Virus record (IMG/VR): IMGVR_UViG_3300034175_000017
Location: 1-64,000 of that record
DNA: 64,000 bases
Direction: 5' to 3' (one strand)
Source: a virus
Part shown: positions 8,077 through 63,776 of the stretch, in pieces
Layout of the letters: the number at the start of each line of letters is the position of its first letter
Numbering within the stretch: position 1 is the stretch's first letter
Notes under the pieces: model-generated
The model's input: only the letters and a program-made list of their open reading frames with translations
Database searches by the model: none
Told to the model about the DNA's origin: nothing
Position numbers and translations under genes: made by a program

Positions 8077-8421
8077 ATGAGCACATATTATGACAAGAAC
8101 CGAGAGATTCGCCTCAAGTATTCCAACGAATACTACCTTCGCACCCGTGACACGAGACGCCCCAACCGTCTCCTTACTGAGGCAAAGAAACGAGCCAAGG
8201 CGTCTGGCCTACCCTTTGACCTAACAATAGATGACATCGTGATCCCAACGATGTGCCCGGTCCTAAATAAGCCAATGGTGTCCGCTAGTTTGGATCGCAA
8301 AGACAACGACAAGGGTTACGTCAAAGGGAACGTATTTGTAATTTCTTTGGAAGCCAATCAGAAGAAGCGGGATTCAAGCATTGCTGACCTTGAAGCAATC
8401 CTTGCATATATGAAATCCTAA
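8077..8421 (+). CDS. HNH-type endonuclease
   Basis: AKKRAK..GLPFDL...CPVL...SLDRKDNDKGYVKGNVFVIS..AN, typical of the phage SLDRID-type HNH family. Confidence 0.8.
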   Translation: MSTYYDKNREIRLKYSNEYYLRTRDTRRPNRLLTEAKKRAKASGLPFDLTIDDIVIPTMCPVLNKPMVSASLDRKDNDKGYVKGNVFVISLEANQKKRDSSIADLEAILAYMKS

Positions 8422-8477
8422 CAACCGCTACATCCATGCCCTTGACAACACGCTGCCCCACAGCCATTCAGCATGGC

Positions 8478-8774
8478 ATGACCCAATCCTTCTCCATCTA
8501 CCAAGGTGACACCTTCCTCGCAGACGCCGTGTATCGGACAGCAGAGGGCGTGCCCATTCCCATCACCCCCGGCCTAATCTCAGCATCCCTCAAGACGCGA
8601 GACGACCGGCACATGCCGATCCAAGTCATACTTGGCGAAGCTGTTGGAACCTATCAGTTGAAAGCAGACACAGAGAACTGGCCCCTCGGTCGAAACTTCT
8701 TGGTTGTCCGATATACGTCTGAGGGTATTGTGCGAACCGCCGAAATGGTTCAGGTAAACGTGGAAGATGCGTAA
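8478..8774 (+). CDS. Virion appendage base/adaptor protein (BppU-N-like beta-sandwich, tentative)
   Basis: MTQSFSIYQGDTF...TENWPLG...; first gene of the fibre module. Confidence 0.55.
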   Translation: MTQSFSIYQGDTFLADAVYRTAEGVPIPITPGLISASLKTRDDRHMPIQVILGEAVGTYQLKADTENWPLGRNFLVVRYTSEGIVRTAEMVQVNVEDA

Positions 8775-8989
8775 TGCCAAACGAAACAATTCTAGTTATC
8801 ACCCAACGGGACGCAACCACGCAACTTGACCCCTTGCCAGTGGGGGGTGTATTGACGCTAACACACGAAGGCGGTTTACCCGGCCCTCCGGGGCCACAAG
8901 GACCAATCGGTCCAACTTTGGTAGTCACCGGCACTGAAGTTTTTGACCCCGGAGACCTGTTGGTCTACCTAGAGAATGGAATGAATTGA
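8774..8989 (+). CDS. Short collagen-like virion protein
   Basis: GLPGPPGPQGPIGP (Gly-X-Y). Confidence 0.65.
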   Translation: MPNETILVITQRDATTQLDPLPVGGVLTLTHEGGLPGPPGPQGPIGPTLVVTGTEVFDPGDLLVYLENGMN

Positions 8990-8990
8990 T

Positions 8991-9503
8991 ATGGCTACCC
9001 TTCAGACCCGCCTTCAAGACCTCGCAACTGCGATTGGCACACAGATCAAGACCATCAAGACGACCGAAGGTCAGCTTACCGCGTTGACGACCGATGCGAA
9101 GACCAGCCTTGTCGCCGCGATCAACGAACTTCAGGCAGAGATCAATGCTGCTGTCGCCGCTTCCGGTGCCACCATCAACGACGCTGCTACGGTATCGACC
9201 ACGCAGACTTACTCGATCACGAAGATTCGTGACCTTGTTTCGACCAGCATTGCAGTTCTGACAACCGGCGCTCCTGCCGCGATGGATACGCTGGACGAAC
9301 TGTCGGCTGCTTTGGGTGATGATGCAAACTTCGCAGCCACCATCACGACTGCTCTGGCCAACCGTGTTCGCTTCGACGCCGTTCAGACCTTGACCGCCCC
9401 ACAGAAGGCACAGGCTAAGGCGAACATCGACGCATACGGCTCGCTGGAACTCGGCAACCCCGACACAGACTTGGTGGCCGTCCTTACTACCGCGATGGCG
9501 TAA
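8991..9503 (+). CDS. Fibre/decoration protein
   Basis: LTTDAKTSLVAAINEL, TYSITKI and APAAMDTLDELSAALGDDANFA phage fibre motifs. Confidence 0.8.
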   Translation: MATLQTRLQDLATAIGTQIKTIKTTEGQLTALTTDAKTSLVAAINELQAEINAAVAASGATINDAATVSTTQTYSITKIRDLVSTSIAVLTTGAPAAMDTLDELSAALGDDANFAATITTALANRVRFDAVQTLTAPQKAQAKANIDAYGSLELGNPDTDLVAVLTTAMA

Positions 9504-9506
9504 CAC

Positions 9507-12500
9507 ATGACGCTTCAGGGTCGCCTTGAAGCGTTTGCGACTGCCGTTGGAGCCAAGTTTAAGGCTATAACTCCACGTTTGCAGCCCGCAGGCGGCACAA
9601 TTGGCCAAGTATTGGCCAAAAATAGTGCAACTGACTTCGATTTTGGGTTCATTACACCCGGAACTGTGCGTTCTGTGGTGCTAACTCAGCCGATTTCGGG
9701 CTTTACGATCACCAATTCGGGCGCTTCCCAATCAACCAACGCCTCTTCGACGTTCGCTTTGGCCGACGATTTGGCTGCTGTTGAGGGTCTTTCGACCCTT
9801 GGTTTCGTCAAGCGCAGTGCCACAAACACTTGGACAACGCAGTCGGCTATCGCTTTGGGCGACCTTGGGACCATCCCCGCCCTCACAATCCTTGGTAACA
9901 TAGGTGGAAGTGCCGCTTCTCCTGCTGCGCTGACTCCAACTGAGGTCACTTCGCTGCTCGATATCTTCACGGCGGGCAAGAAGGGCCTTGTTCCACCCGC
10001 ACCTGCTGTTCCTTCGGGTCTGTTTCTGACCGACTACGGGACTTGGGTCGCTGCGCCCACTGGATCGGGCGGTCCTTCCACTCCAAGCGAGCCGACCTCT
10101 GCTCCTCAGCCGATTGAGTGGGTTCCTGTAACTGCAATAGGGACGGGATCACCACAAACGATCAACCTGACCGCAGCCCTTGCTGCTGACCAAATCTTTG
10201 TCTATGTCCAAGGTCTTCTTCTCGACCCGACCACCGAATACACGGTGAGTGGGGCTGTTCTAACGCTGACTGCGGGCCTTGGTGATATGATTACAGTTCG
10301 GTATCTTAGCTCTACCGCACCTGTTGTGAGCAACGACACGACGCCGAATGCGTTCTCCTTTACTGATGCACCCGGTGTAGCTCTTGGTGCCGTCCAGACT
10401 TCCAACACGATCACTGTTGCTGGTCTTGGTATTGGCATCCCAACTGCTGTGAACATCAGCAACGGCACCTATTCTAAGAATGGTGGCACCTATACCAACG
10501 CTTCGACTTCGGCTGTGAACGGCGACACCTTCTCGGTGCGTCACACGTCATCCGCGCAGAACAGCACGGCGGTCAACACGATCCTCACTATTGGTGGTGT
10601 CAGCGATACGTTCACCTCGACCACCTCTGCGGCTGCTGTGGATGCCACCCCGAACCAGTTTGCGTTCACTGATGTGACCAACGTGGTCGCTAGTTCTGTG
10701 CAGACCTCGAATACTATCACGATCAGCGGCATGACGGCTGGTGCAAGTGCGGCAGTCACGATCACCAACGGCACCTACTCCAAGAACGGTGGAGCCTACA
10801 CTGGTGCTGCTGGAACTGCCTCTGTTGGTGACACCTTCTCGGTGCGTCACACTGCTTCTGCGGCAGGCACGGCCAACACTGACACGACGCTGACCATCGG
10901 CGGTATCAGCGACACTTTTACCTCGACCACTGCTGCTGCTGCACAGGCTGGTGTCCCCGGCATCATCATGAGCAGCGACGTGGAAATGGATCACGACGAC
11001 CTTGCAATGTTTGGTGTCTGCGTTGGCATGCACCAGCGCAATCAGGTCAACATCCTTGCATGGGTCGCTGACTGTCGCGTTCCTACCGGGTCGGCTGCGC
11101 TTCGCGGCGTTCTCAACTATTCCGGCCTGAACCACATCCCTGTTGGGCAGTGGAAGGGCAATACGGGCGGCACCGGCACGACGTGGGCGAATGAAGTCGC
11201 TACGATGACCGGCACTGGCGATCTTCGCATGGCCGACTTCCCTGATGCTGTTGCTGTGACTCGCACGGCCATCATTAACGCGCCAACCAACAACAACATC
11301 ATCATTTCGGGCGGTTCGGCCAGTGTTATCGCTGGTTTCTTGCAGACCCCCGGCGATGCTGCCGATCCTCGCACCGGCCTTCAGCTTGCAATCGACAAGG
11401 TTACTCGCATTGGCTACATGGGCGGCGAGATGGGCACGACCACCAACGAGTATAACTACGGTCACGATATGGCTGCTGCTGAGTATATGCTCAACAACTG
11501 CCCTGTGCCTCTCTTCTTGGTCAGCGGTTCCGAGACCGGCAACATCGTTTCGGGTCCTGCTCAAAGCCAAGACCCCGCGCTCGACCCATATCGTGCAGGC
11601 TTCTTGGCCACGAAGGTCAATCCGGGCGGCGCGTTTATGACCGCTACCGACAAGCGTGCGTCGTATGACCCGACTACGCTGCATTACGCGGTGGTGGGCA
11701 ACTCCACTGGTGCATATGCGTATGTGCGAGGCACGCAGGCCCGCAACCCCGGCACCAACGGTGGTATCTGGACGCCTAGCCCAACTGGTCCTCACTATCA
11801 CCTCGACGTGGTGGCTTCGCTCGCCTCTGTGGGCGCTGTGCTGGATGATCTAATCGCGGAAGCCTACGTTGCACCCTACGTCTTGCCTGCCCCAACTGGT
11901 TTGGTAGCGACTGACGTTCAGAGCACTTCGTTCAAGATCAACATGGCCGAGCTTTCGGGTGCCACGTCCTACGAGTCGTCGGTGAACGGCGGCGCTTGGA
12001 CTGCATTGCCTCGTTCGCGCCTCATCGGTGGCCTTCAGCCTTCGACTGCCAACACAATTAAGCTGCGCGGCATCCGCCCCGGTGCAGTTGGCACGGCCAG
12101 TGCGGACATCACTGTGACGACCACTGCTGCTGCTGCTTTGTGGTCGCCTGATGAGTTGCTCGCGTCCAAGAAGATTGCTCGCTACCGGATGGAAGCTGAT
12201 GCGGCCACCATCGCAGGCGGCACGGCCTCACAGGTCAATGACTTGTGGGGAACTCGTCACATGTTGCAGGCAAACACGGCTTTGCAGCCTGTTGCCACGA
12301 ACACCGCATTCAACGGTGAAGCTCCGGGCTTCTCGGCCAGCAGTGACGAGATGGTTGCAGCCAACGCCTTGATGGGCCTGACCAACAACGTGTTCGTCTT
12401 CATATTGCTGCGTTACAAGGGCGGCAACACCAACGATGGTCGCGTGGTCTCAATGGCTCGCGCTGGCAGCGCAGACTGGGATAACGGCATCATTCCAATG

Positions 12501-12905
12501 TCGATCCGCGCAAACGGTACTTGGTGGGGTTCGTTCTTCGGAGCCAGTTCTGCTGACGGCACCACGCCTCAGACGCCTATTATCGTTTCCTCGTATCTCG
12601 ACAACCTCACCGTCGCCAAGCGCGTCAATGGGTTGCAGATCAGCACGGCCACTGTAACCGCTCGCAATCTGGCGAACACCGCTCGTCTCGGCATCTTCGA
12701 CAACGTGCAGGACGTGGGCACGCAAGAGCCTGCACAGGTCGAGATGGCGGAACTCATCATCTGCAAGGACCTGACGATAGCCGAGGTCGAGAAAATCGAG
12801 GGCTACCTTGCATGGCGTTCGCGTGGCACTGGCAACATCAAGTATAACTCGTTGCTCAACGTCAACCATCCTTACAAGGTGGCCTATCCGCCTGCCGGGT
12901 CTTAA
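9507..12905 (+). CDS. Multidomain fibre protein: fibre N-terminus, 2 Ig-like repeats, nucleoside-hydrolase-fold domain, FN3, LamG-like C-terminus
   Basis: GGTIGQVLAK fibre motif; two ~100-aa repeats; IIMSSDVEMDHDD...PDAV...MGG...EYN...ASYD hydrolase motifs; PAPTGL..Y..GLQPSTAN FN3; C-terminal AELII...KIEGYLAWR. Confidence 0.8.
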   Translation: MTLQGRLEAFATAVGAKFKAITPRLQPAGGTIGQVLAKNSATDFDFGFITPGTVRSVVLTQPISGFTITNSGASQSTNASSTFALADDLAAVEGLSTLGFVKRSATNTWTTQSAIALGDLGTIPALTILGNIGGSAASPAALTPTEVTSLLDIFTAGKKGLVPPAPAVPSGLFLTDYGTWVAAPTGSGGPSTPSEPTSAPQPIEWVPVTAIGTGSPQTINLTAALAADQIFVYVQGLLLDPTTEYTVSGAVLTLTAGLGDMITVRYLSSTAPVVSNDTTPNAFSFTDAPGVALGAVQTSNTITVAGLGIGIPTAVNISNGTYSKNGGTYTNASTSAVNGDTFSVRHTSSAQNSTAVNTILTIGGVSDTFTSTTSAAAVDATPNQFAFTDVTNVVASSVQTSNTITISGMTAGASAAVTITNGTYSKNGGAYTGAAGTASVGDTFSVRHTASAAGTANTDTTLTIGGISDTFTSTTAAAAQAGVPGIIMSSDVEMDHDDLAMFGVCVGMHQRNQVNILAWVADCRVPTGSAALRGVLNYSGLNHIPVGQWKGNTGGTGTTWANEVATMTGTGDLRMADFPDAVAVTRTAIINAPTNNNIIISGGSASVIAGFLQTPGDAADPRTGLQLAIDKVTRIGYMGGEMGTTTNEYNYGHDMAAAEYMLNNCPVPLFLVSGSETGNIVSGPAQSQDPALDPYRAGFLATKVNPGGAFMTATDKRASYDPTTLHYAVVGNSTGAYAYVRGTQARNPGTNGGIWTPSPTGPHYHLDVVASLASVGAVLDDLIAEAYVAPYVLPAPTGLVATDVQSTSFKINMAELSGATSYESSVNGGAWTALPRSRLIGGLQPSTANTIKLRGIRPGAVGTASADITVTTTAAAALWSPDELLASKKIARYRMEADAATIAGGTASQVNDLWGTRHMLQANTALQPVATNTAFNGEAPGFSASSDEMVAANALMGLTNNVFVFILLRYKGGNTNDGRVVSMARAGSADWDNGIIPMSIRANGTWWGSFFGASSADGTTPQTPIIVSSYLDNLTVAKRVNGLQISTATVTARNLANTARLGIFDNVQDVGTQEPAQVEMAELIICKDLTIAEVEKIEGYLAWRSRGTGNIKYNSLLNVNHPYKVAYPPAGS
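10335..10932 (+). repeat. Two tandem ~100-aa Ig-like repeats inside the fibre gene
   Basis: DTTPNAFSFTD...GTYSKNGG...GDTFSVRHT...TIGGVSDTFTSTT, repeated at about 10335 and 10641. Confidence 0.85.
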
Positions 12906-12908
12906 TCC

Positions 12909-14192
12909 ATGAACATTAAGCCGTATCAGATTACGATGAGCGTAGGTGGTGTGCTTGGTCAAACAGCAGCCGGAAATGCACGCCCTCTCACGGCGGCTGA
13001 ACTGACAAACTTCTCGAACACGTTCACGACCACGCTTAAGGGCCTCGTCCCTGCACCGGGCACGTCTACCGGCATGGTGCTCTACGACAATGGAACTTGG
13101 GGTGGCCTGCCTGCTCTTGCGAACGACAGCGTTACCAATCTCAAGCTGGCACAGATGCCCACGCTGACGTTGAAGGGCAATGCCACTGGTGCTCTTGCAA
13201 ATGCGAGCGATCTTACCGTTGCTCAAGTCAATGCGATCCTTCCTGTGTTCACGCAAACGCTCCGTGGTCTTGTCCCACCACCCGGCACAGTAACCGGCAA
13301 GGTGCTGTCAGATAACGGCACTTGGATCACGCCTTCGGGCGGCGGTGGATCGACTGATCCTCTCTGGCTTCCGACTGAATACGTCACTACCAACCCGGCT
13401 AACCCTGCCAGCGGTGTCGTCCTATTTGCCCTCAAGCGTGGCAATCGACGTATCCCCGGATGGGAAGGCACCGATGGTCGTGTTCAGCGCGTGCAGGCGG
13501 CAATAGGCGGTAACAACGTCTATTGGGATCGTGCGACGTGGGGCGCTGCTACCACTTCGGCTATCGGTGTCGGCTGGACCGGCACCCTCACACTCGTAGC
13601 TGGCCCTACCAGCGGCTACCTGAACTCGCTGCCTCGCGGCACGATGACGATTGCCACTGCTGCTGGTATGCTTGATCGACGGACGGCTGTGAACTTCCTG
13701 AACCGTGAAGCGATTTGGGGCGGCTATCATGTGCATATGCGCTTTGGCACTCCTGCTTTGCCAACTGATGCTAAGGTGTTCTTTGGTCTATCGGGCACTG
13801 CTGCTGGCACGGCTTTCACGAACGTCAATCCTTCAACCTTCCTGAATATCTTTGGTGTCGGCAAGGATCAGACGGACACTGCGCTTTCGGTATTCTCGAA
13901 TGACGGCACAGGTGCGGCGACCAAGACGGCTTTGCCTAACACTGGCTCGTTGACCAACATCGCCAATGCCACCTTTCAAGTCGATATTTACACTGTGCCG
14001 GGGGGCGTGGACATTGGTATTCGTGTGCAACGCTACAACAACGCCGATGGCGCGACGACTGTGGACGAGCTTGTGATTGCTACTGACCTTCCAGTAGCGG
14101 CTACCTATAAAGGCGTTCGCTACTGGATGGCCAATACAACGGCGGTGACGCTCACTTTCGCTTACATCCACACCTACATCGAGACGGACTAA
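12909..14192 (+). CDS. Second fibre / receptor-binding protein
   Basis: Repeats FTTTLKGLVPAPG...DNGTW shared with the 9507 gene; SVTNLKLA fibre motif; beta-rich C-terminus. Confidence 0.75.
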   Translation: MNIKPYQITMSVGGVLGQTAAGNARPLTAAELTNFSNTFTTTLKGLVPAPGTSTGMVLYDNGTWGGLPALANDSVTNLKLAQMPTLTLKGNATGALANASDLTVAQVNAILPVFTQTLRGLVPPPGTVTGKVLSDNGTWITPSGGGGSTDPLWLPTEYVTTNPANPASGVVLFALKRGNRRIPGWEGTDGRVQRVQAAIGGNNVYWDRATWGAATTSAIGVGWTGTLTLVAGPTSGYLNSLPRGTMTIATAAGMLDRRTAVNFLNREAIWGGYHVHMRFGTPALPTDAKVFFGLSGTAAGTAFTNVNPSTFLNIFGVGKDQTDTALSVFSNDGTGAATKTALPNTGSLTNIANATFQVDIYTVPGGVDIGIRVQRYNNADGATTVDELVIATDLPVAATYKGVRYWMANTTAVTLTFAYIHTYIETD

Positions 14193-38245: not shown

Positions 38246-41200
38246 GTGCGTGTGTCGATTCAGGTTTTCAAAGGTGCAAAGGGTGGACAGAGCAGCGGCT
38301 CCGGTAGCAGCTTCGTGCAGACTGCCGACAACCTGCGTTCCGAGGATACGTTTGAAGGACTGATGGGCGTCTGCATCGGCCCTATCAAGGGACCAACGAA
38401 GGGCCTCAAGTCTGTGAAGCTCGACGGCACTGCTGTCCAGAGCGAGAACGGTGAAAGCAACTTCCCCGGCTTCATCACTATTATGTCGGACGGCAACCCT
38501 GCCAACCACCCTGAGAAGCCTATTCTTCGTCTCGGTGCTGGTGCTGCTCCTACGCCTGTCAATCTTGCTCTGACTAACCCACCCAACGGCACGTCGCAGT
38601 GGGTAACGAAGACTGTCAACAACATTGCACCTGACTATATCGACCTGCGTTTCATTGCCAATCAACTGTTCACGCAGAACAAGCAGGGCGTCTATAACGG
38701 CACCGCCAGTATTGAAATTGAAATGAAGCCAACTGGCTCGGCAACATGGGTTAATCCTATGGCCTATGCTGCTGGTGTTCCTGCTGGAACGCAAATGCAG
38801 ACTTCGATTGTTGGGTTGGTCGCTCAAGTTTATTTCAACGACTCCTATAATCAGAATGCTCAGACCGGCTATGCTGCTCAGCGAGCCTTTCAGATCACCG
38901 GCAAGACGGGTAGCCCATCTGTGCATGAGCTTCGCATGTGGGTGCCTTCGACCGGCGCGTATGCGAACCGCACTTGGGACATTCGCTGCCGTCTCGTTGA
39001 GAAAGACAGCGTTGACGCTGATCCGATCTTTGAGAAGCGCAACATCAATTGGGAGTCGGCTGCTGCCGTCTATCAGGATGAGATTGGCGAAGAGGAAGAT
39101 TGGCGCGGCGTCTCTTGGCTTCAGATTTACGGCAAGGCATCGAACCAACTTTCGGGCGTGCCTGACGTTGAGGTCGAGACCGACGCAAAGATCGTCTCTG
39201 TGCCGCCGACTTCGATCTTCAACCCTGAGACCCGCGTCTACAACGCTGGCATTTGGGATGGCTCTTGGGCGAAGGGCTGGACGAACGATCCGGCTTGGGT
39301 CATCAATGACATTATCTCTGACGAACTGAGCGGCATTTCCCTGCTCGCACCCGGCTCGTATCTAAACAAGTGGGATGCGCTGGAAGCGTCCAAGTGGTTC
39401 AGTGAGATGGTGCCTGACGGCAAGGGCGGCGTGCATCCTCGCTACAGCCTCAACGTCGTTGCCAACCAGCAGATGAAGGCCGAAGAGTTTGTTCGCTACA
39501 TGGCGGGCGCTGTAGGCGGCTTTGCGTGGGACGAAGGTGACGGCCAGTGGAGGATGAAGGTCGATAAGCCTGACAATCCCGTTGACCTGTTCACGCTTGA
39601 CAATATCGAAGGTGACTTTGTTTACAGTCACAGCGACGTGGATTCGCGCTTCAACGATTACACCGGCACGTTTCTCAATGCCGAGATGGACTATCAGGAA
39701 GATACGGTTCATCTCTACGACAATAACAGCATTGCGCTGATTGGGCACAAACCATCCAGCATTGCACTGGTGGGCTGCACCAATCGTCAAGAAGCGATGC
39801 GTCGTCTGATGATCCGTCTGCGCTCGTCTGTGAATGAGACACGGCTTGTCAGCTTCACTACGAACCGTCGTGGCCGCAACATCGAACAGCTTTCCACGAT
39901 CCTCGTAGCGGACGGCCACCTTGGCGATCAGGCCAAGCGCACCACTGGTCGCACGATCACTGTGGCTGCTGATCGCATGTCGATCATCGTGCGCGACCCT
40001 TTGCGTCTTGAGCTTAACATTCCCTACAAGCTCAAGTTCGCTTATATGAATCCGCTGTATAATCCTGCGAGCACGACGCAGCCAACGAACTCGGATTGGA
40101 CGAAGCCGACGATTGTTGCAGAGCGCAATGTCACCAACAACTTCGCACAGCGCGGCTCGGTCACGACCATCTATCTTGACGCTGCATTGCCTGCTGGTCT
40201 GCCAGACAACCTCGCCATTGCGCTTGAGGCTGCAACGCTTGTTACCCTGCCGCTGCTGTATCGCGTGACGAACGTAGAATACAGCGACGATGGCGAGCGC
40301 GTGACGATCAGCGCACTGGAAGTGGACACTGGCAAGTGGGCTGCTTCTGATGGCGTGAGCAACGTCAACACTGTCTATCAGACTTTGCGGGGCAACGTGC
40401 CAACCCCGTTGCTACCGCCTGACAACACGCTGCTGCGCGTCATGGTGACGGAAGCTGTGCAGGGTCAGAACGTCAGCCTCACCGCCAACTGGCAGCGTCC
40501 TTCAGGCGCACAGGTCAGCGGCTTCCGCGTCACCTACTCGGTGAATGGTGGCGTTGAGCAAGTGCTCACTGAGAAGACCACGCTGACAAGTGCTGACTTA
40601 GTGAACCCACCTGATGGCACCTATATCTTCAATGTTTATACGATCAATCGTAGTGGTGCGCGTTCTGCGCCCCTAGTTGGCACGGCTGTTGTCGATGCCA
40701 ATACGATTACTGCGGCTCAGGTCTTCTACTCGGGTGGCCAGCAGACGCTTGAAGACTTGCGTCCTGCTACGCCGGGTGCCACACGTAACAATCCACGCGG
40801 CGCATGGGCCAGCAATACTGACTACTTTGTGGGCGACATCTTCAGCCACCAAGGTGTGAGCTACATGGTTACTGCGGACCACAGGTCTACTGGAACTGTG
40901 CCGACCTTTGAGAAGATCGTTCTCTTTGTGGATCGCGGTGCTCCGGGTCTGAATACTGCGACGGTCTATCTGTATCAGCGCAAGGCTACTACGCCTGATC
41001 TACCAACAACTGCTGCGACCTACACGTTTTCGTCGGGTGTTCTTACCGGACACAACAACGGTTGGGTGCGAACAATCCCCACCACCAATGGTCTGCCGTT
41101 GTGGGTTACTGTCGCGTCAGCAAGCAACGACACGAACTCTGACATCATCCAGCCAAACGAGTGGGCTGGTGCCACGATTCTTGCACAGGATGGTCCTCCC

Positions 41201-43708
41201 GGCACTGGCAGCGAAGGCCCCGCTGGTCTCAACGTGGCGACGGTGTTCTTGTATAGGCGTTCGCCTGTTACAACTGTGCCGACGAAGCCGACAACGAATC
41301 TGACTTTTACGTTCGCTACGGGTCTGCTGTCTGGCGATCTTCAGGGCTGGCAGCAGACTGTTCCAACCAACGACGGCAACCTGCTTTACGTCACCACTGT
41401 TACCGCCTCGTCAGCAGACCCCACAGACGTTATTCCGGGGGCCGAGTGGGCTGCGCCTACTGTCATGGCCCAAAACGGTGCTGGTGGCTCACAGGGCTTG
41501 AACAACGCCATTGTCTACATCTACCAGCGTGCGACCAATGCTCCTACCTTGCCAACGTTAGGCGTGACCTACACGTTCTCGTCGGGTGTTGTGGCCAATC
41601 TCAACAACGGTTGGCAGGCTACCATTCCAAACGACAACGGCTTGCCGTTGTGGGTTGCTGTCGCCACGGCAAGCAACGTCAATACGACAGACACCATTGC
41701 TGCGACTGAGTGGACGGCTCCACAGATTTTGGTCGCCAGTGCCAGCGGTAGTCAGGGGCCATCGGGTATCAGCGTTGCGACTGTGTTCCTCTACAAGCGT
41801 GCCGCTTCGATCCCAACCAAGCCAACTTTGAACACGACCCTCACGTTCCAAACCGGCGTGCTGTCTGGCGATCTTCAGGGCTGGACGCAAGCTGTGCCCA
41901 CAGTCAACGCGGCTAACGATCCCCTGTATGTGACCACGGCCACTGCTGCTGCTGCTGCTGCGACGGACACGATCGCTCCTACCGAGTGGGCCACTCCTAC
42001 GGTCATGGCATCGAATGGTTTGAATGGCTCTGTCATCAAGCTGACGGCTGACCAGCAGGCGTTCCTTTTCTTGGACAACGTGGCTGTCAATCCTAACCAG
42101 CTAATCACGCTGACGGCTACGCCGCAGAATGCCAGCGAGACTATAACGTGGACGGTCTCGCCCAACGTGACGCTCAATGGAACGGGCAACACTCGCACGC
42201 TTTCGCTCGCCAACTTCGGCGGCAACCTGCAAGTGACGGTGACTGCCAAAGGAAACCTCACCAACATCACAGATACGTTCACGATCATTCGCACCGACAG
42301 GTCTACGGCTGCTGCTGGTGCAGACGTTACCTCGCTCAACACCGCGCTTGGTGACGGCAATCGCGTGCGCTTCTCCTTAATGGAGGGCGGCACTAACGGT
42401 TGGGCACCTTTGCTCGCTGTCGCTAACAATGTTTATTTTGACAAGCAAGTAATAGATGGTCGTGCTTTTATCGTAGGCACGACTCGCTTTGGTGCTGCTG
42501 GAACTGAAACAGCTAGTATCGGAACTAAGTTAGCGGTAGCACCAATTCCTGTTCGTCCTTTTGAACGTCTTAGTGTTTCAGCTTACATTGGCATTGATGC
42601 ACAAGGTCAAAATCGTGCTTGGAACTTTGTGATTTGGTGGGTTGATGCCAACGGTAACGGCATAACCAATACTTCAATTGCAAGTGGAACCGGAGGCACT
42701 CCTCTACTTTACAAGCCAGCAGCCTTTGTAAACGTGCCTGCCAATGCTTATTATGCTTGGCTTGAAGTCTATGCTGGTGCAGGCGGTGGCCCTGCTGGCG
42801 ACATGATTACCTACATCGGTGAACCAATGGTGACGACTGCTGGTTCGTCTCAGACTGTGCATCCTAACTTCACGCCGGGTCCCGGCAACGAGATGGGTGC
42901 TGACGTTACCGCGAACTCGCAGGTGACTTCAGAATACACGGTTACAACTGTAACGCTCAATGCCAATAGCAGCGGTGTTCTTGACGCGGGTCAGTTTCCT
43001 GTCACGTTGGCTCTGCCTAAGGTGCTCAAAGGCGGTCAGTTAGTGACGACCAGCGGGGATACTACCTACGCTATTTCCGGCCAGACTCCCGCTTTATCCG
43101 GTATCTCTGTTGACAACGGCGCTGGCAGTCCATCGAAGGGCCAAGTCACTCTTCCTAACACTGTGACAGGCAGCGGCAGCTTCACGCTGAACATTTACTA
43201 CAAGGGCACGCTTGTTTCGGCTCACCCTGTAGCTGTAGCTAAACAGAACGCGGTTTATGTGCCGCCACCTGTTACTCCTCCTCCCACAGGTGGAACAGGA
43301 TCAGGCGCTGCTGTCTATATGCCGACGAACGTAACGGCAGTAGCGGGAACACCGGCTGTCACTGCGGCTGCTCCTGTCTATGTGGGTTCGGGCAAGACGT
43401 TGGTGTGCAACTTGAGTGCTCAATATTCCTGCTTCGGTATCACTAGGTCCACGCGTCTTGTGGCGAAGTTCCAGTATTCTCCTGCGGGAGCCAATAGCTG
43501 GACGGACATTGGGCCATATGCCACCGGAAGTGTTACCTCTACGGATCAAGAAGGAAACCTAAATGACTATGGTGAGCTAACTATGGTTCAATCGGTCGCG
43601 CCTGCTGCGGGAAACTATGACGTTCGCCTCAATTTCTACAAAGCCTTGACCGCGAATGCGCTTCGCCTAGAACCAAACTCCGATGGTTATGCGAATGGTA
43701 ATGGCTAA
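38246..43708 (+). CDS. Tail tip / host specificity protein J with fibre-like repeats
   Basis: GAKGG...DNLRSED...GPIKG...WDGSW..WTNDPAW...GCTNRQEA.R, FN3 domain, 4 internal repeats. Confidence 0.92.
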   Translation: MRVSIQVFKGAKGGQSSGSGSSFVQTADNLRSEDTFEGLMGVCIGPIKGPTKGLKSVKLDGTAVQSENGESNFPGFITIMSDGNPANHPEKPILRLGAGAAPTPVNLALTNPPNGTSQWVTKTVNNIAPDYIDLRFIANQLFTQNKQGVYNGTASIEIEMKPTGSATWVNPMAYAAGVPAGTQMQTSIVGLVAQVYFNDSYNQNAQTGYAAQRAFQITGKTGSPSVHELRMWVPSTGAYANRTWDIRCRLVEKDSVDADPIFEKRNINWESAAAVYQDEIGEEEDWRGVSWLQIYGKASNQLSGVPDVEVETDAKIVSVPPTSIFNPETRVYNAGIWDGSWAKGWTNDPAWVINDIISDELSGISLLAPGSYLNKWDALEASKWFSEMVPDGKGGVHPRYSLNVVANQQMKAEEFVRYMAGAVGGFAWDEGDGQWRMKVDKPDNPVDLFTLDNIEGDFVYSHSDVDSRFNDYTGTFLNAEMDYQEDTVHLYDNNSIALIGHKPSSIALVGCTNRQEAMRRLMIRLRSSVNETRLVSFTTNRRGRNIEQLSTILVADGHLGDQAKRTTGRTITVAADRMSIIVRDPLRLELNIPYKLKFAYMNPLYNPASTTQPTNSDWTKPTIVAERNVTNNFAQRGSVTTIYLDAALPAGLPDNLAIALEAATLVTLPLLYRVTNVEYSDDGERVTISALEVDTGKWAASDGVSNVNTVYQTLRGNVPTPLLPPDNTLLRVMVTEAVQGQNVSLTANWQRPSGAQVSGFRVTYSVNGGVEQVLTEKTTLTSADLVNPPDGTYIFNVYTINRSGARSAPLVGTAVVDANTITAAQVFYSGGQQTLEDLRPATPGATRNNPRGAWASNTDYFVGDIFSHQGVSYMVTADHRSTGTVPTFEKIVLFVDRGAPGLNTATVYLYQRKATTPDLPTTAATYTFSSGVLTGHNNGWVRTIPTTNGLPLWVTVASASNDTNSDIIQPNEWAGATILAQDGPPGTGSEGPAGLNVATVFLYRRSPVTTVPTKPTTNLTFTFATGLLSGDLQGWQQTVPTNDGNLLYVTTVTASSADPTDVIPGAEWAAPTVMAQNGAGGSQGLNNAIVYIYQRATNAPTLPTLGVTYTFSSGVVANLNNGWQATIPNDNGLPLWVAVATASNVNTTDTIAATEWTAPQILVASASGSQGPSGISVATVFLYKRAASIPTKPTLNTTLTFQTGVLSGDLQGWTQAVPTVNAANDPLYVTTATAAAAAATDTIAPTEWATPTVMASNGLNGSVIKLTADQQAFLFLDNVAVNPNQLITLTATPQNASETITWTVSPNVTLNGTGNTRTLSLANFGGNLQVTVTAKGNLTNITDTFTIIRTDRSTAAAGADVTSLNTALGDGNRVRFSLMEGGTNGWAPLLAVANNVYFDKQVIDGRAFIVGTTRFGAAGTETASIGTKLAVAPIPVRPFERLSVSAYIGIDAQGQNRAWNFVIWWVDANGNGITNTSIASGTGGTPLLYKPAAFVNVPANAYYAWLEVYAGAGGGPAGDMITYIGEPMVTTAGSSQTVHPNFTPGPGNEMGADVTANSQVTSEYTVTTVTLNANSSGVLDAGQFPVTLALPKVLKGGQLVTTSGDTTYAISGQTPALSGISVDNGAGSPSKGQVTLPNTVTGSGSFTLNIYYKGTLVSAHPVAVAKQNAVYVPPPVTPPPTGGTGSGAAVYMPTNVTAVAGTPAVTAAAPVYVGSGKTLVCNLSAQYSCFGITRSTRLVAKFQYSPAGANSWTDIGPYATGSVTSTDQEGNLNDYGELTMVQSVAPAAGNYDVRLNFYKALTANALRLEPNSDGYANGNG
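40945..42022 (+). repeat. Four ~90-aa repeats in J
   Basis: GLNxATVyLYqR...P..PT...TF..G.l....GW...P..nG..LwV......D.I...EW..P. Confidence 0.85.
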
Positions 43709-48021: not shown

Positions 48022-48107
48022 GAGATTTCCATAGCAACCACTTCCTATCATTGATATGTTTTTTTCTTCTATTACTAAGTATAATACATAAAAGAAAGCC
48101 TTATAAA

Positions 48108-48722
48108 ATGAACCTCCCCGTATTTTATGACCGACTCCGCAAAGGGAAACTGCTTGGGCCGGTGTTGGATGCGGACGAGTTCGAGGGGACCAGCGAGATT
48201 GTCAACGCAGCATTGGTGCGGGGTGTTGGCCTAGCACAATTGGCTTACATGCTGGCGACGACCTACCATGAGACCAACGGCACCATGCAGCCGATCAAGG
48301 AACTCGGTGGACACGGCTATCTCACTCGTATGTATGACCCTCGCGGCACGCGCCCCACGTTGGCGAAGCGCAACGGAAACATTTATCCCGGCGACGGAAT
48401 CAAGTATGCTGGTCGCGGTTTTGTGCAGTTGACGTGGCGCGGGAACTACGCTCGCGTCGGTGCGCTGTTGAAGATTGACCTTGTGAACAACCCCGACCTT
48501 GCTATGACGCTGCCGGTCGCCGCTCGTATTCTCGTTGAGGGGATGATGGCCGGATGGTTTACGGGCGTGTCGCTGACGAAGCGACTGCCTGCCAAAGGTA
48601 AGGCTACTCGCGCACAGTTCGTGCTTGCACGTCCTATCATCAACGGAACGGACAAAGCCGACAAGATCGCTGGCTATGCCATGATCTTCCAAGAGGACTT
48701 AATTGTAGCGGGGATGTCATGA
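48108..48722 (+). CDS. Endolysin, glycoside hydrolase family 19
   Basis: LAYMLATTYHET...PIKE...YAGRGFVQLTWRGNY...IINGTDKA. Confidence 0.92.
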   Translation: MNLPVFYDRLRKGKLLGPVLDADEFEGTSEIVNAALVRGVGLAQLAYMLATTYHETNGTMQPIKELGGHGYLTRMYDPRGTRPTLAKRNGNIYPGDGIKYAGRGFVQLTWRGNYARVGALLKIDLVNNPDLAMTLPVAARILVEGMMAGWFTGVSLTKRLPAKGKATRAQFVLARPIINGTDKADKIAGYAMIFQEDLIVAGMS

Positions 48723-61854: not shown

Positions 61855-63708
61855 CTAAGTAAGAGCTGCCTTGGCGGCAGTGATCTTGTCGGTCAATCCC
61901 TTGACCTGAGCATCGCGGGTTGCAACCAGCGCCTCAAGCTCCTTGATGCGAGCATCGCGGGGATCAGTCGTTGGCGGCGGCGGTGTCACAGGTGGTGGTG
62001 GAGCCGTGTCAGCGGCCAACGTGACCGAGTTCCAAGAGTCCACCCATCCGCTGTCACCCTCGGCATCGAAGGCAGTAACGCGGCCCTTGATGGGCTTGCC
62101 AAGATGCTCCGCTGGGATGGTCAGCCGTGGTGTATCGCCCGATGCCAACGTGACGCCGTTGCTGCGTGCCTCATAAAAGCGACGAACAATCGGCTGGCCG
62201 TTCCAATCGGCACCTTCGATGGTCACGTCCTTCGTGCCAGCGACGACGCTGATGTAGGTCTGCGCCTTAGCAGTAGGAACGGTGTTGGTCGTTGGAGCAA
62301 CAGGCGGCGGGGCTGGTGGGAGCGGTTCGCCTGCCATATCGGTGATCCAGTTGGAAATGGTTGTGGTCGAAGTGACCAGCCCGCCCGTCAGGTTCCCAAT
62401 GATGATGTCAGACTGCTCTTGATTGCCCGCAACCCACGACGACTGATCGTTGGTCTCGGCTACGTTGTCCAGCTTGATCGGACGCTCCACCGTGAAGGTG
62501 AAGTTACCAGCCTGCGTGATACGCACGGTGCCAGAGTTTTCGTTGGCCGGAACATATACGATGCCGGTCTTGGCAGCGAACATATCCGCAACAGACTTGG
62601 TGAAGTCCGCAGCGTTCACCGTGTTCTGATAGGTGATGGTGAACGACTGATCGACCTTGCCGTTGGCGACCTCAAACGTCAGCCCTTGGTTCTGTCCCTC
62701 GTTCAGCGTGTCGCTTCCGACGCGGCGAACAGTAAGACGGGACTCGACAGGGGTAGGCGCAATCACAACAGGCGTTCCGGGGACAGCCGTGAAGTAATTC
62801 TTGAGCAGACCGAAGGCAGACGAGTCGGCTGTTCCGGGCTTGGACAGATACAACTCGTAGTCGGCAGGCCACCAAGCACCAACGGACCATGCAGTGCCGC
62901 CGATGGTGTTCGCCACCATGTAATCGAGCATGTTCTTCTCGGCGTCCAGCCAACGTGCGTCGTTGCTAGGCACACCGAACTCACCGATCATGCCACGGAA
63001 GTTGTTGGCCTTGATCCAATCGACAAACTTCTTGAGCTTGTCCACGCCGACCATCGGGTAAGCGCCCTCGCCGTCATAGCTATACTTGTAGCTGCCGGAG
63101 CTATCCCGGTCGAGATACTGGTGAGCCTGATAGACGAGGTTGTTGGCTGGATCGTTGACGATGAACGTCGGGTCCCAAGAGTGAGCACCGGACCAGTTGT
63201 CACCCTCGATATAGATCGTGTGGGTGGTGTCCACTTCGCGGATCGCATTAATCGCAGCCTGTGCTGCAACCTTCCAAGCCGTTGCCGAGGGCATGTTGTT
63301 CGGCTCGTTCATCACGTCGTAGCCCTCAAGGGCCGGATGATTTTTCACTGCTGACGCCATCTTTCGCCAGAAGTCAGCGAGGTTGGCAGCGGTGGGTCCA
63401 CCCGTCGAGCCGATAGCGTTGCCGCCGTGGCGTGCGTAGCTGTGGTTGTCGATGAACAGGGTCATACCGAGTGTCTGTGCGTCGTTCAGCACGCGGGTCA
63501 TGAGCGCAAGCTCTGCGGTATTGAGTGGACCGTTCAGAACGTTCTGCATGCGGTCCCAAATGAACGGCAGGCGGAACCACAGGATGCCCTTGTTCTTGTA
63601 GTAGAGCAACTCGTCGTAGGTGGGGTAATGGTATTGCTGATCGTGGATGCCAGCGGTGCCGCCGAACTCGGCACCGGAAATGTTGGCGGAAATAAGCTGA
63701 TGAGCCAT
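61855..63708 (-). CDS. GH5 endoglucanase (cellulase-like) with C-terminal Ig-like modules and coiled coil
   Basis: NISGAEFG, FRLPF.W.RMQ, DNHSYAR, NEP (acid/base), HQYLD, IGEFG (nucleophile), W..G.WW. Confidence 0.92.
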   Translation of the reverse strand: MAHQLISANISGAEFGGTAGIHDQQYHYPTYDELLYYKNKGILWFRLPFIWDRMQNVLNGPLNTAELALMTRVLNDAQTLGMTLFIDNHSYARHGGNAIGSTGGPTAANLADFWRKMASAVKNHPALEGYDVMNEPNNMPSATAWKVAAQAAINAIREVDTTHTIYIEGDNWSGAHSWDPTFIVNDPANNLVYQAHQYLDRDSSGSYKYSYDGEGAYPMVGVDKLKKFVDWIKANNFRGMIGEFGVPSNDARWLDAEKNMLDYMVANTIGGTAWSVGAWWPADYELYLSKPGTADSSAFGLLKNYFTAVPGTPVVIAPTPVESRLTVRRVGSDTLNEGQNQGLTFEVANGKVDQSFTITYQNTVNAADFTKSVADMFAAKTGIVYVPANENSGTVRITQAGNFTFTVERPIKLDNVAETNDQSSWVAGNQEQSDIIIGNLTGGLVTSTTTISNWITDMAGEPLPPAPPPVAPTTNTVPTAKAQTYISVVAGTKDVTIEGADWNGQPIVRRFYEARSNGVTLASGDTPRLTIPAEHLGKPIKGRVTAFDAEGDSGWVDSWNSVTLAADTAPPPPVTPPPPTTDPRDARIKELEALVATRDAQVKGLTDKITAAKAALT

Positions 63709-63776
63709 CAAGGTTCTCCATTGTGTGTGACGTGTAGGATATAGGGCATCACACCCTACACGTCCAGAAACACAGG

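Follow-up and report, generated by a model that had tools for sequence, protein, structure and literature searches.

A strongly diverged nucleoside hydrolase-fold domain in a fibre-like protein of a biocrust siphophage

We describe a nucleoside hydrolase-fold (NH) domain embedded in a modular, fibre-like protein that is encoded by the IMG/VR virus record IMGVR_UViG_3300034175_000017. The window analysed here, to which all positions refer, comprises the first 64 kb (64,000 nucleotides) of this 81,356-base record, for which CheckV gave a completeness of 97%. The stretch 10947–11870 is a strongly diverged member of the inosine/uridine-preferring nucleoside hydrolase (IU-NH) superfamily, since profile homology, the fold predicted by AlphaFold2 (AF2), structural matches and language-model features all agree. 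Both the fold assignment and the phage context are solid. With regard to function, which we infer, the findings suggest that a phage may possess a hitherto undescribed means of recognising or trimming a sugar on the host surface. Gene and domain are located as follows:

9507–12905, + strand: gene of the 1132-amino-acid (aa) modular fibre-like protein (P0001), from the list of open reading frames (ORFs) and the translation
10947–11870, + strand: IU-NH-fold domain, aa 481–788 of this protein (P0002), from AF2, Foldseek, VIA-align and transitive homology in hidden Markov model (HMM) searches

A nucleoside hydrolase fold missed by its own profile

The AF2 model of aa 481–788, built on an alignment of 63 sequences, reached a mean predicted local distance difference test score (pLDDT) of 94.2 and a predicted template modelling score of 0.92. 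All top Foldseek matches were NH enzymes or XopQ-type effectors (probability 1.00, E-values down to 1.7e-13). Using VIA-align, the best match was XopQ (Z 27.9, root-mean-square deviation 2.8 Å, 272 residues), and RihA, YeiK, the trypanosomal inosine-adenosine-guanosine nucleoside hydrolases and the entries 1mas and 2mas were found at Z-scores of 26–27.6, all of these alignments spanning model residues 1–308. The predicted structure therefore has the IU-NH fold, as a first-pass annotation of the DNA had proposed from the order of motifs, and this proposal has thereby withstood the refuting condition set for it, namely a different fold. These motifs are all present in the translation (SSDVEMDHDD at aa 489–498, MGG at 638–640, EYN at 648–650 and YD at 720–721), and the placement of the domain at 10955–11870 agrees with the structured region.

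The HMM search against PF01156 that had been suggested along with this proposal turned out differently: it gave no match for the 1132-aa protein or its NH domain at E ≤ 10, leaving the domain below the curated cut-off of 34.2 bits. Applied to the whole 81-kb record, the model gave no match at E ≤ 1, and it did match in 8 of 14 control genomes. Pfam, NCBIfam and PHROGs held nothing for residues 481–797, and a phmmer search of the Protein Data Bank (PDB) with the NH domain returned noise only (antibody light chains).

An exhaustive phmmer search with the NH domain against 1.84 billion representative sequences recovered 1240 relatives at E ≤ 1e-3, 325 at E ≤ 1e-10 and 4 at E ≤ 1e-30; the NH-bearing relatives from this search that are discussed below are numbered P0003–P0008 and P0108. 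Two alignments were derived, A1 with 27 members (the phage domain and 26 stand-alone relatives) and A2 with 63. The A1 consensus reads I.DTD...D.DD, MGG, E.N and WD, and the subtype assigned at first pass is borne out by the Asp loop, which is two residues longer, and by the family consensus DTDxxxDxDD...MGG...ExN...WD. PF01156 matched 24 of the 27 A1 members (E ≤ 0.01), the phage domain being one of the three misses, and 50 of the 63 A2 members, again without the phage domain. When the A1 profile was searched against the PDB, 33 sequences were found at E ≤ 1 (best 8.4e-11). Apart from unnamed entries, which turn up again among the structural matches of NH fold, all of them are NH enzymes or XopQ-type effectors. 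Language-model features agreed independently, with 29 of the 30 nearest clusters belonging to the PF01156 set (best score 0.95). Judged from these profiles, the homology of the domain to the IU-NH family is transitive and runs via intermediates. The resemblance is far beyond chance, yet invisible to a direct HMM search.

Conservation of the active site

Residues were mapped to the enzyme of Crithidia fasciculata (1mas) by combining a profile-to-1mas alignment with the alignment of the phage domain to the profile. Asp10, Asp14, Asp15, Thr126, Asn160, Glu166, Asn168, His241 and Asp242 are given in the literature numbering of this enzyme, which fits the chain indices of 1mas with an offset of one. 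Three segments carry most of the relevant positions:

10971–11000, + strand: Asp loop S489-S-D491-V-E-M-D495-H-D497-D498, mapped to 1mas through the A1 profile
11442–11456, + strand: T-N-E648-Y-N650 with the ExN ribose-binding motif, aligned to E-F-N of 1mas
11664–11669, + strand: Y720-D721, aligned to the His-Asp pair of the C. fasciculata enzyme (1mas)

The equivalences to 1mas and the conservation, tallied over 157 domain instances in 151 proteins, are:

S489, equivalent to Asp8: Asp in 118, Ser in 8 of 157
D491, equivalent to Asp10: Asp in 152 of 157
D495, extra residue of the lengthened loop: Asp in 146 of 157
D497, equivalent to Asp14: Asp in 139 of 157
D498, equivalent to Asp15: Asp in 139 of 157
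G602, equivalent to the Thr126 backbone
E648, equivalent to Glu166: Glu in 130 of 157
N650, equivalent to Asn168: Asn in 153 of 157
Y720, equivalent to His241: Trp in 123, Tyr in 16, Phe in 10 of 157
D721, equivalent to Asp242: Asp in 130 of 157

The positions for Ca2+, ribose and activation of water are retained in the phage domain (D491, D497, D498, E648, N650 and D721). The loop from D491 to D497 is two residues longer than in classical enzymes and contains the additional D495. As a consequence of this insertion and of a Ser in place of the first Asp, the hallmark DXDXXXDD is not present as such, with D491, D497 and D498 standing for its second to fourth Asp. In the excerpted text of Glowacki et al. 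(bioRxiv 10.1101/574913), the second and fourth Asp of this motif coordinate Ca2+, the third binds ribose and the first is "nearly conserved". The Ser had been noticed at first pass, and S489 indeed occupies a position with Asp in most instances of the family. Since both Ca2+ ligands and the ribose binder are kept, this exchange removes, on the present alignment, no metal or sugar ligand and is no argument for a dead site. A review (PMC10526354, in excerpt) describes ExN and GN as the motifs that bind the ribosyl ring and mentions a longer DXDXXXXXDD in some fungal enzymes.

Besides that, the family has near-invariant residues of its own, namely R586 (153 of 157), S/T614 (155), D617 (149) and K631 (142). 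The first three have no conserved counterpart in 1mas, S/T614 and D617 lying within a ten-residue family-specific insertion, and the residue aligned with K631 in 1mas is an Arg. In the three closest copies, at 53–57% overall identity, D491, D495, D497, D498, N650, D654 and D721 are all invariant.

Modular organisation of the fibre-like protein

The remainder of the 1132-aa protein consists of further modules, some of which are shared with the neighbouring genes or with the NH-bearing relatives:

9507–9638, + strand: N-terminal ~44 residues, a probable attachment helix, common to the upstream 170-aa fibre protein
9861–10085, + strand: fibre module aa 119–193 (...KGLVP.P...D.GTW), common to the downstream 427-aa ORF
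10341–10946, + strand: two tandem ~100-aa beta-rich repeats, aa 279–378 and 379–480, with phrog_4924 spanning aa 320–422
11895–12137, + strand: linker and beta-rich module aa 797–877, possibly FN3, aligning with P0003 and P0004 up to aa 877
12114–12902, + strand: C-terminal module aa 870–1132 (~260 residues), a candidate sugar-binding tip, homologous to the post-NH regions of P0006, P0008 and P0108

PHROG matches of the protein comprise phrog_22680 (aa 10–54) and phrog_4924, annotated as "short tail fiber protein" (aa 320–422). By BLASTP, its N-terminal helix shares 11 of 20 residues with the N-terminus of the 170-aa protein (ORF 8991–9503; E 8e-4). Tblastn matches of aa 1–280 are confined to aa 1–44 and occur in nine records of Caulobacter jumbo phages, where the matching gene directly follows a homologue of the 170-aa gene. 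Similarly, the module at aa 119–193 is 41% identical to part of the 427-aa protein over 75 aa (BLASTP, E 1e-11), and a second copy is present in the latter (E 1e-6).

The first-pass annotation had placed the NH domain behind Ig-like repeats. Two repeats do lie upstream of it and are 60% identical to each other (E 3e-33); with no Pfam or PDB match for either, the label "Ig-like" finds no backing there. The ~80-residue module after the NH domain travels with it in P0003 and P0004. For aa 797–877 of the 1132-aa protein itself there is no Pfam match, and the corresponding stretch of P0003 has a sub-threshold match to Pfam fn3 (E 3e-4, 21.4 bits, cut-off 25).

The C-terminal module matches the post-NH regions of P0006 (E 6e-14) and P0008 (E 6e-15), and the more distant P0108 is also homologous. 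Its language-model features resemble phage clusters, some of them with Laminin_G_3, and LamG is given here as a candidate label on the basis of this similarity. A near-length search found no relatives of the module, and a search among shorter proteins returned just a 90-aa fragment of the same protein. There was no PDB match, either by sequence or by a profile of four sequences, and a local profile of the four C-terminal regions matched, among the 151 family proteins, just its own three other members. The single-sequence AF2 model of the module (mean pLDDT 32.2) was too poor for a fold search.

Phage-borne relatives with shuffled modules

Next, we looked at the proteins and loci in which related NH domains are found. 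P0003, with 57% identity in the NH domain, lies on a 66.6-kb metagenome contig (L006) that shares at least seven further genes with the phage, including a DNA polymerase at 49% identity. Upstream of its NH domain, P0003 carries a SASA carbohydrate-esterase domain and a sub-threshold cadherin-like match. Upstream of the P0003 gene, a separate gene of 163 aa (L006:7911–8402) matches aa 200–274 of the 1132-aa protein (44% identity, E 1e-10), so that part of the N-terminal region is a stand-alone gene there. P0004 (53% identity) is found on a 147-kb contig of an uncultured Sphingomicrobium metagenome-assembled genome (MAG). Its gene follows a 1657-aa tape-measure gene, starting four bases beyond the end of the latter, with a major tail protein upstream and an endolysin downstream, and encodes a Calx-beta domain before the NH domain. 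Alignment among the 1132-aa protein, P0003 and P0004 is confined to the NH domain and the module after it (up to aa 877), a pair that is joined to different N-terminal parts in each of the three.

In a FastTree phylogeny of 156 domain instances (one short row was dropped; the midpoint rooting is arbitrary), P0002 groups with P0003 and P0004 in one clade (support 1.0), and P0002–P0006 together with P0008 form a clade of exactly six (support 0.97). Outside of this clade, P0007 shares its first 44 residues and 152 of its first 240 positions with P0005, and their distal parts differ: the end of P0007 matches a PHROG annotated as "virion structural protein" (4.8e-28), and P0005 has no such end region. 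Since the N-termini match while the NH domains are placed apart in the tree, this pair looks like the outcome of an exchange of modules behind a shared anchor.

Most members of the wider family are multi-domain proteins, with a median length of 589 aa and more than 120 residues after the NH domain in 87 of 150 proteins. Laminin_G_3 was found in 9 of 63 relatives, and an N-terminal hydrophobic leader in 66 of 150 by a crude hydropathy test. Among the distant bacterial relatives, a Bacteroidaceae MAG has two tandem NH paralogues of 346 and 344 aa (L005:9923–12034), both above the PF01156 cut-off and located near an NAD synthase gene and a uridine-kinase-family gene, which suggests a riboside-salvage locus. 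At another locus (L007), a LacI regulator is found near the NH relative. Around neither of these two bacterial relatives was a signal of glycan degradation found.

Genomic context of the appendage genes

The gene of the 1132-aa protein belongs to a series of five + strand genes (8436–14192), which overlap or are separated by gaps of 1–3 bases. The flanking members are:

8436–9503, + strand: three upstream genes in tight spacing, encoding proteins of 112 aa and 71 aa and the 170-aa fibre protein
12909–14192, + strand: 427-aa fibre-like gene, the last of the module, after a 3-base gap to the 1132-aa ORF and with the shared fibre module

The 170-aa protein matches phrog_4757 (5e-43) and many tail-fibre PHROGs, its homologues being annotated as "tail fiber protein" in some phages and as "head fiber protein" in Gordonia phages. 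The 427-aa protein has no PHROG match. An arrangement mirroring the 170-aa gene and the start of the 1132-aa gene is found in Caulobacter phage CcrSC (9001–9923, gp125/gp126), where the pair sits between the capsid and tail genes of this jumbo phage. Phages of the phiCbK type possess a head filament, and the gp125/gp126 pair may be a candidate for the base of this structure.

Judged from the tail-fibre PHROGs of the neighbour, the shared helix and fibre module and the coupling of the genes, the 1132-aa protein very probably forms an appendage of the virion, be it a side fibre on the tail or a fibre on the head. The earlier description of the NH domain as part of a fibre protein is in line with this, the protein being modular and encoded within a phage appendage gene cluster. 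An antisense primase gene parts this cluster from the terminase, head and tail genes. A scan for promoters and terminators between 7600 and 14500 found sites no more numerous than in shuffled sequences.

Two further observations concern this region. The 71-aa ORF (8774–8989, + strand), which overlaps the stop of the preceding gene, contains a collagen-like G-X-Y run of five consecutive triplets. Directly upstream of the appendage genes lies an HNH/endonuclease VII-like gene (8077–8421, + strand; phrog_3322, 5e-24), which may mark a mobile or recombination-prone junction.

The phage and its setting

The virus is an uncultured ~81-kb siphophage of biocrust soil, known solely through metagenome data. 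A PHROG scan of the record found genes for the large terminase, portal, major head protein and primase as well as for a tape-measure protein, a J-like central tail fibre, a DNA polymerase and an endolysin. The terminase shares 36–43% identity with the terminases of a loosely knit set of ~80-kb siphophages, comprising Pseudoalteromonas phage KB12-38, Caulobacter phage Seuss, Achromobacter phage JWF, Xylophilus phage Lumi and Acinetobacter phage TCUP2199. DNA of the 1132-aa gene was found in seven DNA sequencing runs with biocrust or soil labels, all of 2020, of which two may be the source sample and two contain less than one tenth of the gene's words; no RNA run is among the runs listed as containing this DNA.

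The endolysin (48051–48722) is 37% identical to the endolysin (L004:16632–17321) of the Sphingomicrobium prophage region that carries P0004. Taken together with the common NH cassette, this similarity gives a weak hint of an alphaproteobacterial host of the Sphingomonadales type. Elsewhere in the window, the J-like central fibre gene (38246–43708) contains an 89-nt direct repeat (41279–41367 and 41813–41901, 73% identity, 534 bases apart), indicating an internal domain duplication, and a 618-aa ORF (61855–63711, − strand) has phrog_25311, a family of unknown function, as its sole PHROG match (3.6e-11).

Occurrence in other phages and in the literature

The first-pass annotation knew of no described virion appendage with this fold, and neither did the sources consulted here. 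In INPHARED, the NH domain was not found by megablast or tblastn. Peptide-pattern searches of IMG/VR yielded 219 candidate stretches with the NH domain and 245 with a further alignment (A3), none of which was confirmed. These searches are weak evidence of rarity, because they may omit the record itself or near copies and the pattern method finds close relatives only. BFVD returned five matches at E ≤ 0.001, all of them giant-virus proteins and none from a phage, and of 11 proteins tested against PHROGs, none had its NH domain covered by a family. Literature searches brought up no NH-fold domain in a phage appendage; in the excerpts of two publications (PMC4591317, PMC9228384), phage nucleoside hydrolases are listed among genes of nucleotide metabolism, not among fibres.

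Proposed function and alternative explanations

One possible explanation, which we favour tentatively and at somewhat short of even confidence, is that the NH domain is an exposed, Ca2+-dependent, ribosyl-recognising hydrolase on the fibre that would modify a receptor, namely a surface glycan of the host, in an exo-type manner. This proposal draws on the retained catalytic set, on O-riboside precedents (XopQ and RusNH, see below), on the fibre context and on the esterase, adhesion and lectin-type modules that accompany the domain. The module would recognise a ribofuranosyl-type sugar and most likely hydrolyse its glycosidic bond on a surface polymer. D491, D498, D721 and the G602 backbone carbonyl would hold Ca2+, which would chelate the cis-diol of the sugar, and D497, N650 and E648 would hold the remaining hydroxyls. 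D491 would activate the attacking water, and Y720 might stack on or assist the leaving group, which in this case would not be a nucleobase but the adjoining sugar of an O-glycoside, the kind of substrate reported for XopQ. Because NH pockets enclose a single ribose, terminal or side-branch residues would be trimmed and polymer backbones would stay uncut. Glycan binding might be provided by the C-terminal module, and the J-like central fibre might make the final contact with the receptor.

Several findings weigh against this proposal. The first Asp of the hallmark motif is lost (S489), and GN has no aligned counterpart in the profile alignment, because the loop before ExN is four residues shorter there. 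In the two closest relatives, the equivalent of Glu166 (E648) is Thr (P0003) or Ser (P0004), which leaves some of the residues for sugar binding free of strict constraint. The domain goes unscored by PF01156 itself, the loci of the two distant bacterial relatives (L005, L007) resemble nucleoside or ribose salvage and not glycan degradation, and the argument for incorporation into the virion is drawn entirely from gene context. Furthermore, we found no NH-fold enzyme in the literature that acts on a polysaccharide, the known ones acting on small molecules.

The most serious alternative, though in our view an unlikely one, is binding without turnover, in which the domain would serve in receptor binding as a Ca2+-dependent lectin for ribofuranose or a similar cis-diol sugar on the host surface. 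The Ca2+ and sugar-holding residues are kept, as such a lectin would need, and the lost first Asp, the lack of an aligned GN, the Tyr in place of His at the leaving-group position and the Thr or Ser at the E648 position all fit a site that no longer turns over. HopQ1/XopQ, too, were long without nucleoside activity even though ADP-ribose was bound (PMC3608555, in excerpt; title of PDB 4p5f). Against mere binding speaks the near-invariance of D491, the proposed water-activating residue: 152 of 157 instances have Asp there, and so does every member of the six-member clade; and XopQ, with the same motif variant, proved to be a very efficient enzyme according to the excerpted text of bioRxiv 10.64898/2026.06.15.732069.

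It is rather improbable that the domain is a relic or spacer, i.e. a structurally intact but functionally idle block that adds length or rigidity to the fibre. The protein is indeed a string of unrelated globular modules, and direct HMM detection fails; but seven residues (D491, D495, D497, D498, N650, D654 and D721) are invariant at 53–57% identity, and the cassette has moved into at least three different fibre architectures, which suggests selection for what it does. A slim chance of the same order is given to a displayed nucleosidase whose substrates would be free nucleosides or similar ribosides in the vicinity of the host surface, comparable to the inosine hydrolase of the Bacillus exosporium. 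The relatives are annotated as IU-NH and match the corresponding Pfam model, the contexts of L005 and L007 suggest riboside salvage, and leaders are frequent by the crude hydropathy test (66 of 150). The benefit of such an activity to a phage particle is, however, not obvious, and the modules that accompany the cassette, for adhesion and as esterases, are of the sort typical of receptor-binding proteins.

Still less probable is a soluble multi-domain enzyme outside the virion, released at lysis and acting on the host matrix. The antisense primase gene, which separates the module from the head and tail operons, would allow for it; the N-terminal helix common to a protein homologous to annotated tail or head fibres, the fibre motif common to the next gene and the position of P0004 directly after a tape-measure gene all speak for a structural protein instead. 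Least probable of all is a counter-defence function inside the infected cell before assembly, where the domain would destroy an ADP-ribose-derived (Thoeris-type) signal as XopQ does: the DXXXDXDD variant of XopQ/HopQ1, the rank of XopQ as top structural match (though tied with classical NH enzymes) and its inhibition of type VI Thoeris (bioRxiv 10.64898/2026.06.15.732069, in excerpt) are outweighed by the location between extracellular-type modules in a late structural gene, by the lack of any special XopQ kinship (the clade profile misses XopQ at E ≤ 1, the family profile scores it at 1.6e-4) and by the nearest relatives, which are fibre proteins or proteins with leader peptides.

Returning to the proposed receptor-modifying hydrolase, a more specific version of it is possible but doubtful: the domain could stand for a new class of NH-fold, Ca2+-dependent O-ribofuranosidases on virion fibres, which trim ribofuranosyl (or related furanosyl) residues from host glycans. 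If true, this would be the first NH-fold enzyme acting on a polysaccharide and, after XopQ, the second independent case of an N-ribohydrolase site repurposed for O-glycosides in a host-parasite conflict; it would also point to ribofuranose-type sugars as receptors that phages use on Alphaproteobacteria-like hosts in soil. The known glycan-specific enzymes that serve in typing, biofilm removal and host-range engineering stem mainly from phage receptor-binding proteins. The list of catalytic folds on these proteins is short, and an NH module would add a fold together with Ca2+-assisted ribosyl hydrolysis. With ~310 residues, the domain is also tractable for asking whether the shift of XopQ from N- to O-glycosides is a wider property of the fold. 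Finally, a well-known enzyme family can escape its own Pfam model in phage proteins, and similar modules have therefore probably been missed in viromes.

Comparison with known systems

Classical nucleoside hydrolases (1mas/2mas; RihA, RihB and YeiK of Escherichia coli; PF01156) have the same fold as the phage domain (Z 26–27.6, ~3 Å, 270–280 residues) and share with it the Asp equivalents for Ca2+ and ribose, the ExN motif and the C-terminal Asp. In contrast to them, the phage domain is not scored by PF01156, is 12–16% identical, has an Asp loop with two more residues and an extra Asp, and shows Ser for the first Asp, no aligned GN and Tyr for the leaving-group His. Furthermore, the classical enzymes are free cytosolic tetramers or dimers, whereas the phage domain is embedded in an 1132-aa fibre-like protein.

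The XopQ/HopQ1 effectors (PDB 4kl0, 4p5f, 7jlu) are nominally the best structural match (17–18% identity), tied with the classical enzymes. The phage loop D491-V-E-M-D495-H-D497-D498 corresponds to DXXXDXDD, the variant of XopQ/HopQ1 that the excerpted text of Li et al. (PMC3608555) describes as peculiar to these effectors and absent from bona fide nucleoside hydrolases; the same text reports that no nucleosidase activity was detected for HopQ1. According to the excerpt of Roth et al. (bioRxiv 10.64898/2026.06.15.732069), XopQ, a member of PF01156, hydrolyses 2'cADPR at its O-glycosidic ribose-ribose bond with a kcat/Km of 1.4e7 per M per s, is able to disable type VI Thoeris and represents a new O-glycosyl hydrolase class derived from N-glycosyl hydrolases. 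The family profile scored XopQ at 1.6e-4, worse than the classical enzymes (8e-11 to 1e-9), and a profile of the phage clade reached RihA alone (0.026) and not XopQ at E ≤ 1. As neither profile favours XopQ and the structural Z-scores are tied, this likeness is no evidence of kinship; XopQ is a precedent for O-riboside chemistry in the NH fold. XopQ is, moreover, a stand-alone effector that acts on a small cyclic nucleotide in plant cells, unlike the phage domain, which is one bead of a presumably extracellular fibre.

RusNH (BT2808), from the ribose-utilisation locus of Bacteroides thetaiotaomicron, is described in the excerpted text of bioRxiv 10.1101/574913 as exported and periplasmic, active on p-nitrophenyl-beta-D-ribofuranoside and weakly active on nucleosides. 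It is also described as having an additional Asp inside the hallmark motif, and the wider family of the phage domain often has an extra Asp and leaders as well. Unlike the phage protein, RusNH is a single-domain bacterial enzyme of a nutrient-uptake locus.

A further parallel is the inosine-uridine nucleoside hydrolase of the Bacillus exosporium, which is displayed on a particle and acts on a small-molecule germinant. PDB entry 2c40, the B. anthracis enzyme, matches the phage-domain model at Z 26.5. The exosporium hydrolase likewise sits on the surface of a dormant particle, but it is a free enzyme and not a fibre domain.

The closest parallels in architecture are tailspike depolymerases and the SGNH/SASA esterases of fibres, with which the 1132-aa protein shares an anchor at the N-terminus, distal modules that can be exchanged and, as proposed here, an enzyme directed at carbohydrates. 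Phage depolymerases are usually trimeric beta-helix proteins. The 1132-aa protein differs from the known enzyme-bearing receptor-binding proteins in its NH catalytic fold and its beads-on-a-string architecture and would therefore, as far as our searches reach, be an enzyme-bearing phage receptor-binding protein with a catalytic fold new for this role.

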